Below the pieces are notes generated by a model, which was not told the origin of the DNA, did no database searches, and saw nothing but the letters and a program-made list of their open reading frames with translations. 64,000 nucleotides of DNA from Chloroflexota bacterium (GTDB lineage Bacteria > Chloroflexota > UBA11872 > VXOZ01), in NCBI GenBank assembly GCA_964291655.2, contig OZ219801.1, positions 480,001-544,000 of the forward strand, read 5' to 3'. The position numbers were made by a program, and so were the translations under genes. This document shows positions 16,778 through 19,086 of this stretch, one piece after another. The first letter of the stretch is position 1. Each line of letters opens with the position of its first letter.

Positions 16778-16848
16778 CGCCAGCACACAATCGCAACACG
16801 CAACATTGCCACGCTAAAGCCGAGTACTGCCTCGCATAGACAATTCTC

Positions 16849-16920
16849 GGGCCGGTAGCTCAGTGGGAGAGCGCTGCGTTCGCATCGCAGAAGTCGGGGG
16901 TTCAAATCCCCCTCGGTCCA
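16849..16920 (+). tRNA. tRNA-Ala(CGC)
   Basis: Cloverleaf with acceptor GGGCCGG/TCGGTCC-A and G3:U70, D arm GCTC/GAGC, anticodon arm CTGCG-TTCGCAT-CGCAG, T loop TTCAAAT. CCA is not fully encoded. Confidence 0.97.
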
Positions 16921-16967
16921 CCTCAATCGCCGATTCTCTAAACTTTGTGCACATGTCACATCGGCAA

Positions 16968-18150: not shown

Positions 18151-19086
18151 TTAATTCCAAAGCGGGCTGAGCTCGTATATTTGAAGCAAGCCCGTTCCAA
18201 TTGATCGATTCGCCCTGGGAATTGGGTGGTCGTAGACTAGCTCAATTCGCTCTGGGTCCAGAATGGCTAGCATTACTGCCCCTAGGGCGTGAGGACGAGT
18301 ACCTAAAGGCGCAACCTTTAGTCGCGCATTGTGGCAATCGACTGCAATGTCCTTCAATGCATACATGAGGCTGAACGGACAATTCGCGATGGCGAATCGA
18401 ACATTCTGCCATATTGGGCTATCCTCGAACGGAGCTCTATTTCCAAGGTAGGAATGGAAGGGATAGTCCGGTCTGAATCCTGGCGAACCTACGATAGGAA
18501 GAACTCGCTCATAGGGAATCTCTATCTGGTTTAGCGCATAGGCTAGACGAGCACCTTCGAATCCAAGTATCGGCACAAAGTAAACGTCGTCAGAGTCGCG
18601 CGGTTCTGTAAGGCGCGCAAAGCCGGGCAAACTTGAAATCCCCATGATCCTCTCACTAAGATCAAATATTAGTGAATCTGCACTAGCTCCACTAGGAATG
18701 TATCCGAAAGGTTCAACGTAAACGGCATGGACATTTACACCATGCAGAATTGCGCGCTTCAGGACAACGGCCCAAATGTGGTAAGGCAACCCAGTGATGT
18801 TCAAATAGAGTTCTTTACCGATTTTCCCTATTAGGGCTTCCAATTGAGTTGCACTCCTCAACTGAACAGTCGACGAGATCGCACCCACTGTCTCAAAAGC
18901 CATGCTGCCTTTGTCAACGCACTCTACGAATCTGGCACTGAATTCCCGCTCTTCCCACTCCGAAGGATGCTTGGACCTAGGCTCAACTGAATTACTCCAC
19001 AAATAAACGGAATCTGGACTTAGATACAGTTCGTGCCATCCGCATAGTGTCCGTGTATAGAGTGGCCGCTCTTCAAATGGAAGCAT
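18151..19086 (-). CDS. Hypothetical protein, putative tandem CARF-like (Rossmann) domains
   Basis: LYLNITGL...VHAVYVEPFGY and VPILGFEGARL...KVAPLGTRPHALG...ELVYDHP both resemble CARF strand-loop-helix signatures. The ORF is solid; the fold is inferred by eye. Confidence 0.55.
   Translation of the reverse strand: MLPFEERPLYTRTLCGWHELYLSPDSVYLWSNSVEPRSKHPSEWEEREFSARFVECVDKGSMAFETVGAISSTVQLRSATQLEALIGKIGKELYLNITGLPYHIWAVVLKRAILHGVNVHAVYVEPFGYIPSGASADSLIFDLSERIMGISSLPGFARLTEPRDSDDVYFVPILGFEGARLAYALNQIEIPYERVLPIVGSPGFRPDYPFHSYLGNRAPFEDSPIWQNVRFAIANCPFSLMYALKDIAVDCHNARLKVAPLGTRPHALGAVMLAILDPERIELVYDHPIPRANRSIGTGLLQIYELSPLWN

Follow-up and report, generated by a model that had tools for sequence, protein, structure and literature searches.

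A stand-alone tandem CARF protein of the CARF6 family in a mobile, methylase-linked ATPase cassette

What could a CARF-type protein sense when it has no effector domain of its own and no known signal synthase beside it? The question is raised by a gene in a stretch of 64,000 nucleotides of the Chloroflexota bacterium assembly GCA_964291655.2 (contig OZ219801.1, positions 480,001 to 544,000 of the forward strand), the whole of which is called the window here. The gene encodes a protein of the CARF6 family and is the third of a minus-strand operon with overlapping reading frames, in the order phosphoribosyltransferase (PRTase), ATPase, CARF6, and methylase. An earlier note, made from the sequence alone, had described the protein as a single-chain tandem CARF-like sensor without effector domain, located outside of CRISPR (clustered regularly interspaced short palindromic repeats) and CBASS (cyclic oligonucleotide-based antiphage signalling system) loci, and had suspected an unknown signal possibly linked to the PRTase. 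Judged from its predicted model, the protein very probably combines a canonical CARF lobe at the C-terminus with a degenerate CARF-like lobe at the N-terminus, and the two lobes are arranged towards each other as in the CARF pseudo-dimers of Can1 and the SAVED proteins. Concerning its role, CARF6 could well serve an ORC/Cdc6-like ATPase switch as its regulatory, nucleotide-sensing subunit, within a conflict cassette linked to methylation that has the PRTase (PRTase-CE) as effector, a proposal on which our judgement is evenly balanced.

Gene, family, and fold of the CARF6 protein

The open reading frame is a genuine gene. Compared with a 95%-identical copy at another locus (L001) it shows 53 synonymous and 15 non-synonymous differences, corresponding to proportions of changed synonymous and non-synonymous sites (pS and pN) of 0.242 and 0.021, and the pN/pS of 0.09 reveals purifying selection. 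A word-indexed search provided 742 homologues at E ≤ 1e-3 among 2739 candidates, and a profile search of 1.84 billion representatives resulted in 1011 clusters of 50% identity at E ≤ 1e-3 (671 at 1e-10 and 268 at 1e-30). The best 120 of the 742 homologues comprise 181-339 residues, are unnamed or annotated as "hypothetical protein", and have no precomputed Pfam domain. The ESM Atlas matches are also "hypothetical protein" clusters only, without Pfam families. The typical length of CARF6 relatives is about 300-335 residues, and no fused or longer form of 546-2000 residues scored among 2452 candidates, which is weak evidence. Only 12 short matches (30-170 residues, 45-76% identity) were obtained, all of them single-member clusters and two of them on one contig. 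They resemble fragments, and split forms of CARF6 were rejected. The absence of an effector domain, as claimed in the earlier note, is supported by these lengths. Decayed copies were found as well: one gene contains an in-frame stop in its N-terminal part (L065:6001-6471), one is split across two frames and has no ATPase gene upstream (L019:1327-2435), and next to a third (L068:5905-7244) the PRTase and ATPase are absent and only a methylase stub of 117 residues is left.

The CARF assignment is prior art because the PADLOC-DB model PDLC01913, "CARF6--CARF_CARF_CARF", matches the protein over its full length (residues 5-309 of 311, E 5.5e-94). Three further PADLOC CARF6 models match it with E-values from 6e-27 to 5e-10, and the four models are matched by all 34 aligned relatives. 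The label "CARF_CARF_CARF" may be a sign of repeated CARF units. The name CARF6, carried by the PADLOC-DB models PDLC01910-01925, reportedly goes back to the census of CARF/SAVED proteins by Makarova et al. 2020 (Nucleic Acids Research, NAR). At E ≤ 1 the PADLOC matches are CARF6 models only, and the Pfam SAVED family is not matched. The window protein is an ordinary instance of this already catalogued family, and nothing sets it apart from the other members. In the literature searched we found no tested function for any CARF6 member, and also no published description or test of a cassette of PRTase-CE, ATPase, CARF6, and methylase, which is not proof that there is none in print.

For the fold, an AlphaFold2 model was obtained from the alignment of 34 sequences (mean predicted local distance difference test score, pLDDT, 83.1; predicted template modelling score 0.86), in which only residues 134-148 have a pLDDT below 50. 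The model was compared with 48,161 chains in an exhaustive VIA-align search, which gives no residue-level alignment. The top 14 rows are all CARF proteins with Z scores of 10.0-7.0, most of them covering model residues ~166-291: Csm6 8jbc_A (Z 10.0, 131 residues aligned), Can1 6sce_A (9.2), Can2 8bao_B (8.9), Cam1 (8.8), Csm6 9w3u (8.8), a further Can2 (8.7), Card1 (8.4), Csa3 6wxq_B (7.9), Cdn1 (7.9), Cami1 (7.9), another Can2 (7.6), VC1899 (7.5), Csm6 (7.1), and Csm6' (7.0). Can1, which has a double CARF in one chain, superposes across both lobes (213 residues, model 25-289, root-mean-square deviation (rmsd) 4.2, 11% identity), and the 761-residue Csm6 9w3u aligns over 219 residues (model 25-287, rmsd 7.4). 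In addition, 11 SAVED entries cover both lobes (model ~23-291) with 170-196 aligned residues and Z scores of 7.0-5.9, namely Cap14, SAVED-CHAT, several Cap5, two Cap4, the viral SAVED ring nuclease, and CalpL.

The C-terminal lobe shows the six strands of a CARF domain in the order β1-α1-β2-α2-β3-α3-β4-α4-β5-β6 (β1 168-174, β2 198-201, β3 230-233, β4 255-260, β5 281-286, β6 301-305). The N-terminal lobe was also folded alone, using residues 1-165 and a separate alignment of 46 sequences from the genome loci, from which L065 was left out due to the in-frame stop in its reference (pLDDT 82.4). It has the same order of elements, except that a β-hairpin takes the place of one unit. The CARF domain of Csa3 6wxq_B matches it best (Z 7.1, rmsd 3.4, 98 residues aligned, model 25-129 to chain residues 1-125). 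The C-terminal lobe matches these very residues of the chain (model 167-291, Z 7.9). In the search with the N-terminal lobe, the top 18 rows include eight CARF proteins, interleaved with other Rossmannoids, and the sole PRTase among the fold matches follows below them in row 22 (Z 5.2). An inactive PRTase or an unrelated fold was rejected on these grounds.

Much of what the earlier note had read from the translation is found again in the model. All its motif strings are present (LNITGL 95-100, VYVEP 122-126, Y129, VPILGFEGAR 171-180, VAPLGTRPHALG 258-269, and LVYDHP 283-288), and the second lobe opens with the strand 168-174 (VYFVPIL), in agreement with the proposed start of the second unit at VPILGFE..R. 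The single-chain tandem CARF itself is supported by the CARF matches of both lobes and by the superposition of the whole protein on Can1 and SAVED, and this reading of the fold holds because there is neither an effector domain nor a fused form. The two internal units, which had been deduced from their spacing, have the same strand-loop-helix-strand build in the model (92-96, 102-114, and 118-124 in the first; 255-260, 264-276, and 281-286 in the second) and represent β4, the following loop, α4, and β5 of their respective lobes. As a sequence repeat, however, they are no better than chance. Comparing residues 1-165 with 166-311 by hhalign, based on an alignment of 127 sequences, resulted in E 0.097 and a probability of 0.6%, and other split points gave E-values of 0.04-0.21. 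The comparison placed LYLNITGL...VYVEP over LKVAPLGT...VYDHP, which is the register of the earlier note. As far as the model goes, the internal repeat is carried by structure and not by sequence.

The conserved residues were determined from the 127 sequences, which have 26-43% identity to the query. At least 95% of these keep R37, D96, Y123, E125, P126, Y129, and P154 in the N-terminal lobe and the linker, and G175, F176, E177, G178, R180, P197, G200, P202, G203, N216, G262, T263, P265, H266, D286, and G297 in the C-terminal lobe. Nearly all of them mark the C-terminal end of a strand or belong to the loop just behind it. The conserved loops include those after β1 and β4 of the C-terminal lobe and after β1, β4, and β5 of the N-terminal lobe, and in solved CARF dimers the ligand is held by these loops. 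The C-terminal lobe has G175-F-E-G-x-R180 after β1 and G262-T-(K/R)-P-H266 after β4. The N-terminal lobe has R37 after β1, D/N96 at the end of β4, and Y123-x-E125-P126-x-x-Y129, with T98-G99 being less conserved. Conserved loops thus follow strands 1 and 4 in both lobes, and right after these two strands is where the CARF motifs are said to be placed in the definition by Makarova and colleagues from 2014. L143, G155, and F156 are invariant columns in the alignment of 34 sequences. At residue 96 (codon 18799-18801), which is Asp in at least 95% of the wider family, Asn is found in the query together with the clade close to it, 7 of the 34 aligned sequences.

Several results weigh against a nucleotide-sensing tandem CARF. 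At the sequence level the protein is not matched by any Pfam or NCBIfam model at E ≤ 1, the profile of 34 sequences did not find any PDB entry at E ≤ 10, and the internal repeat is not significant. At the structure level the match of the N-terminal lobe is middling, with all chains below Z 8 and with Rossmannoids of other kinds, such as sugar-phosphate cyclases and binding proteins, at Z 5-6. Searching the PDB by Foldseek with the full model yielded poor global matches only (KaiC, KCC transporters, and the arabinose-binding protein, with template modelling scores of 0.2-0.27). The Foldseek result shows no more than that the protein consists of two α/β lobes, and since it is uninformative we relied on the VIA-align search. 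Concerning function, we know of no cassette enzyme able to make a CARF ligand, and the near-invariant polar residues R37, D96, E125, E177, R180, N216, T263, H266, and D286 would also fit an enzyme.

An enzyme is the first alternative to be considered. CARF6 might be a ring-nuclease-like or other nucleotide-processing CARF/SAVED protein by which a nucleotide is destroyed or converted, be it for an off-switch or for a step in the effector chemistry beside PRTase-CE. Many near-invariant polar residues, for example H266, D286, E125, and E177, would suit catalysis, and ring nucleases belong to the effector-less CARF/SAVED proteins and are seen among the fold matches (Sso2081 7ygh_A with Z 6.8; 9r8s_B, a SAVED ring nuclease of viral origin, with Z 6.5 over both lobes). 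A recent preprint describes CARF/SAVED domains as sensors and as signal-terminating endonucleases alike. However, pure sensors have the same conserved loops, and a cyclic-oligonucleotide synthase was not found in the genome or the flanks, so that such an enzyme would have no known substrate. We regard an enzymatic CARF6 as unlikely.

The cassette and its variants

The context of CARF6 was surveyed by tblastn at 80 loci, drawn from genomes of Chloroflexota, Planctomycetota, Acidobacteriota, Actinomycetota, Pseudomonadota, Bacteroidota, Bacillota, Spirochaetota, and others. PRTase and ATPase genes are located upstream of CARF6 in 76 of these, the remaining loci being at contig ends (L013 and L026), fragmentary (L019), or decayed (L068). 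A methylase gene is present in 79 loci and missing in L047. The gene order of the window is repeated in 73 of the 80 loci, and in three more (L006, L021, and L040) the methylase gene precedes the PRTase gene. The four genes together span about 4.9 kb (Table 1). In the window the ATPase and CARF6 frames overlap by 14 nucleotides, and CARF6 and the longest methylase frame by 50 nucleotides. The PRPP-loop (phosphoribosyl pyrophosphate) residues D157, D158, G161, G163, and Q165 of PRTase-CE are invariant in 35 of 35 sequences. Sequence searches of the PDB with the PRTase, the ATPase, and the methylase gave nothing informative. The methylase is probably a DNA N6-adenine methylase. None of the four cassette proteins contains a nuclease domain according to Pfam, PADLOC, and NCBIfam, so that the nuclease of a restriction-modification system is missing.

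Table 1. Features of the CARF6 locus in the window
Feature	Position	Strand	Basis
tRNA-Ala(cgc) 16849-16922 and five preceding bases, left copy of a 79-nucleotide direct repeat	16844..16922	+	ARAGORN and repeat D2
Amino-methyltransferase, 410 residues, motif I DFAVGTGE, motif IV NPPF, C-terminal domain of ~190 residues	16968..18200	-	Pfam MTS 3e-7, N6_Mtase 5e-6; PADLOC MTase_II 9e-16, mad2 2e-12
CARF6-family gene, stand-alone tandem CARF (predicted pseudo-dimer), 311 residues, ATG start	18151..19086	-	Open reading frame, PADLOC, AlphaFold model, pN/pS
C lobe, residues 166-311, predicted canonical six-stranded CARF fold	18154..18591	-	DSSP of the model and fold matches
Inter-lobe segment, residues ~131-165, with conserved F/D-L-S-E and P154-G-F motifs	18592..18696	-	pLDDT <50 at 134-148
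N lobe, residues ~23-130, predicted degenerate CARF-like Rossmannoid, β-hairpin 63-75 replacing one α/β unit	18697..19020	-	Model and fold match
ORC-CDC6-like AAA+ ATPase, 632 residues, Walker A GGRGTGKT	19073..20971	-	Pfam PF24389 E 2.1e-132, full length
PRTase-CE, phosphoribosyltransferase-fold enzyme, 299 residues, PRPP-loop motif VLVDDFVGTGQQ	20929..21828	-	Pfam PF24390 E 1.2e-43, PADLOC PRTase_III-A E 8e-14
Second tRNA-Ala(cgc)-like copy (25810-25883), 90% identical, 3' 50 nucleotides identical, right island end	25805..25883	+	ARAGORN and repeat search

The variants of the cassette show which of its parts can be exchanged. In a genome of the same genus (G015, L085:4136-8597) a TIR domain is fused to the N-terminus of the ATPase, followed by CARF6 (PDLC01917, E 8e-32) and a DNA methylase of family PF01555, and there is no PRTase. 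Another genome (G204, L116:3794-8761) encodes a Dam-like methylase (PF02086), a calcineurin-like phosphoesterase with a PF24408 winged helix-turn-helix domain, the ATPase (E 6e-98), and CARF6 (PDLC01915, E 1e-50). A third variant (G257, L117:2480-9695) contains a weak HAD-like protein, PRTase-CE, the ATPase, a CARF6 of 385 residues (PDLC01910, E 1e-117), and a PfkB-like kinase, and a methylase was not seen there. Two further genomes, G172 and G364, provided only P-loop-level matches, on which no claim is built. The ATPase adjoins CARF6 in every variant examined. Each type of cassette has its own CARF6 sub-model, PDLC01913 in the window, 01917 with TIR, 01915 with the calcineurin-like enzyme, and 01910 with the PfkB-like kinase. 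Because the ATPase and CARF6 stay while PRTase-CE, TIR, or a calcineurin-like enzyme fills the remaining slot, this slot is probably that of the effector. Three unrelated families of DNA methylases appear in one role, so that DNA methylation itself should be the selected function. The fixed core of ATPase and CARF6 with swappable effectors and methylases provides a clear experimental handle, and the cassette is small and easily cloned.

This bears directly on the signal suspected in the earlier note. Spelled out, the PRTase would turn PRPP into a new nucleotide signal, to be sensed by the tandem CARF. The complete conservation of the PRPP-loop residues and the strict collinearity of PRTase-CE with the ATPase and CARF6 would agree with a signal-making PRTase. 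The PfkB-like kinase and the weak HAD-like protein added in one variant resemble a set for nucleoside or nucleotide biosynthesis, and the CARF6 sub-models differ between the effector types, so that ligand and enzyme could co-vary. However, TIR or a calcineurin-like phosphoesterase takes the slot of the PRTase in other cassettes, and if the PRTase only signalled, the cassette would be left without another effector. In the literature, "CE" stands for conflict effector (bioRxiv 10.64898/2026.01.15.699771), PF24390, the Pfam family of PRTase-CE, is listed with type III-A1 retrons, the defence PRTase ShosT disrupts purine metabolism and is, in ShosTA, a toxin paired with a protein antidote (PMC11961720), and defence PRTases are described as effectors or toxins (bioRxiv 10.1101/2025.09.30.679545). 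The link between signal and PRTase is weakened by the exchanges and by the retron listing, and we consider it distinctly unlikely. It is more likely that the PRTase is a swappable effector than a signal maker.

The tight association of the genes allows another explanation, in which CARF6 does not bind any small molecule but is a structural adaptor or an antitoxin-like partner that restrains the ATPase or the effector and has just inherited its fold from CARF. The gene overlaps suggest translational coupling, CARF6 strictly co-occurs with the ATPase, and the reported toxin-antidote pair of ShosTA offers a precedent. Against this, the conservation is centred on the canonical ligand loops of both lobes and not on one surface patch, as far as can be told from the alignment, and motifs as they are typical of nucleotide sites, Gly-rich or with Arg/His/Thr, are retained in the family. 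A CARF6 without ligand seems highly improbable to us.

If CARF6 has a ligand, it is hard to see one of the known cyclases as its source. The source genome, which is 97.55% complete, contains no match to SMODS (PF18144), Csm1 (TIGR02578), or Cmr2 (TIGR02577), and neither cas genes nor cyclases are among 150 flanking open reading frames of 26 related loci. The location outside CRISPR and CBASS, as assumed in the earlier note, is supported by these results. The protein has neither the link to the signal synthase Cas10 that goes with CARF nor the CD-NTase partner and the fused effector that go with SAVED. What is understood of CARF/SAVED sensors is limited to those acting downstream of a Cas10 or CD-NTase cyclase, and since the cassette is without a cyclase, CARF6 would have as its ligand an immune signal or danger molecule of a new kind.

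In the mechanism that we infer, with respect to binding in the inter-lobe cleft and the contact to the ATPase as well as to the order and direction of signalling, the tandem CARF would bind an asymmetric nucleotide-type ligand in a cleft lined by the loops after β1 and β4 of both lobes. This ligand would originate from a source other than a Cas10 or CD-NTase cyclase. CARF6 would then relay its ligand state through protein contact to the ATPase switch, which in turn would license the effector, here PRTase-CE. The role of the cassette is probably anti-viral. In a preprint of the Aravind laboratory, ORC-CDC6-like NTPases are proposed as DNA sensors or switches that work with a separate nucleotide-sensing domain (bioRxiv 10.64898/2026.10.19.760177).

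A more specific possibility for the ligand takes the methylase into account. The tandem CARF could be the receptor for a modified mononucleotide that is freed when an invader degrades DNA marked by the cassette's own methylase, and binding would flip the ATPase and unleash the nucleotide-destroying effector, be it PRTase-CE, TIR, or calcineurin-CE. A dUTPase, which neighbours part of the cassettes, might serve as co-effector by turning deoxynucleoside triphosphates (dNTPs) into monophosphates and pyrophosphate for the PRTase. The analogy is with PUA-Cal-HAD, in which Dam-derived N6-methyl-deoxyadenosine monophosphate (m6-dAMP), freed by phage-induced chromosome degradation, triggers a filament of Calcineurin-CE and HAD, and dNTPs are depleted (bioRxiv 10.64898/2026.01.15.699771). 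If true, this idea would account for a methylase that lacks a nuclease and for a CARF that lacks a cyclase. It is speculative, and we hold it to be rather doubtful.

Mobility and neighbourhood

The cassette of the window is located on a genomic island between the two tRNA copies listed in Table 1. In G001 and G016, two genomes of the same genus, the flanks of these copies are only about 200 nucleotides apart and represent an empty site. Therefore, the ~9.2 kb in the window (about 16.9-26.1 kb) are an inserted island. The content of guanine and cytosine (GC) is 0.49-0.53 over 16-22 kb compared to 0.56-0.62 around. An integrase-sized open reading frame was not noted inside the island. Of 16 other genomes of the genus, 3 were found to have CARF6, one of these in a distant variant, compared to none of 24 other genomes of the class searched.

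The island further contains an open reading frame for 803 residues (23070-25481, plus strand) with a long C-terminal domain and with 12 tandem leucine-rich repeats of 72 nucleotides, or 24 residues, at 23311-24402. In GC content (0.62) it exceeds the cassette. At another locus (L007, 10552-12168), too, the cassette is flanked by a leucine-rich-repeat protein.

Beyond chromosomes, 149 plasmid records match the cassette, of which 129 are from Klebsiella, and most of the 149 plasmids are conjugative. In pKPHS2 (NC_016846; L082, 1626-6702 of the locus), a conjugative plasmid of IncFII type, methylase, PRTase, ATPase, and CARF6 are encoded beside repA. The cassette of this and the 128 other Klebsiella records is a distant version (28% identity over residues 83-307). 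RefSeq annotates the three non-methylase genes as hypothetical. In viral collections, a pattern scan of IMG/VR yielded one locus, and two records of one Acinetobacter phage were found in addition. A mainly phage-borne cassette was rejected on the basis of these counts.

Genes of deoxynucleotide metabolism are found next to part of the cassettes. A dUTPase or the flavin-dependent thymidylate synthase ThyX is encoded beside the cassette in 20 of the 80 loci, in 19 of these within at most about 350 nucleotides of its edge and often in the same orientation. The dUTPases are trimeric in L008, L011, L017, L018, L021, L022, L028, L030, L035, L040, L041, L061, and L064, and of the dimeric type dUTPase_2 in L044, L050, L054, and L081:1489-2151. 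ThyX is present in L002, L003, L016, L023, and L028. On a Moraxella plasmid the dimeric dUTPase opens the operon, and in L037 ribonucleotide reductase genes follow downstream. The cassette of the window has neither dUTPase nor ThyX beside it. Two unrelated dUTPase folds (PF00692 and PF08761) at the same place suggest selection for the activity. With respect to the chemistry of PRTase-CE, the neighbouring enzyme may act as co-effector or as safeguard.

Comparison with known systems

Can1 (PDB 6sce) shares with CARF6 the two CARF domains in one chain and their pseudo-dimer arrangement. Can1 is switched on by cyclic tetra-adenylate (cA4) from Cas10 and has nuclease and nuclease-like domains between and after its CARF domains, whereas CARF6 has no effector domain, no Cas10 partner, and no sequence similarity to Can1. 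The SAVED proteins (Cap4, Cap5, Cap14, CalpL, SAVED-CHAT, and the viral 9r8s) have the fused double CARF-like fold in common with CARF6, and the viral SAVED ring nuclease is also a stand-alone protein. However, CARF6 does not match the SAVED family of Pfam within the threshold given above and has neither a CD-NTase in its genome nor a fused effector. The C-terminal lobe of CARF6 is closer to classical CARF domains than the whole protein is to SAVED, as seen from the respective Z scores.

With respect to the effectors, systems with PRTase-CE and Calcineurin-CE as conflict effectors are reportedly a subject of the work by Nicastro and colleagues in NAR from 2023. PUA-Cal-HAD, the tested example of such systems, also joins members of the conflict-effector families, to which PF24390 of the window and the calcineurin-like enzyme with PF24408 in G204 belong, to a nucleotide-binding sensor. 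It differs in that the sensor is a PUA-like domain fused to the effector, and in that there is no ORC-like ATPase and no own methylase. ShosT of ShosTA, the PRTase of the type III-A retron, and OpnC of Ophion are PRTases acting as toxins or effectors, and the window PRTase matches the PADLOC model PRTase_III-A. In contrast to the CARF6 cassette, they lack a CARF as well as an ORC-like ATPase and a methylase.

The ring nuclease Crn1/Sso2081 and the regulator Csa3, a CARF with a helix-turn-helix domain, have, like CARF6, a CARF without an enzymatic effector domain. Both are homodimers of one CARF and are tied to type III CRISPR. CARF6, in contrast, is a fused, heterodimer-like pair with unequal lobes, and it is tied to an ATPase, a methylase, and PRTase-CE.

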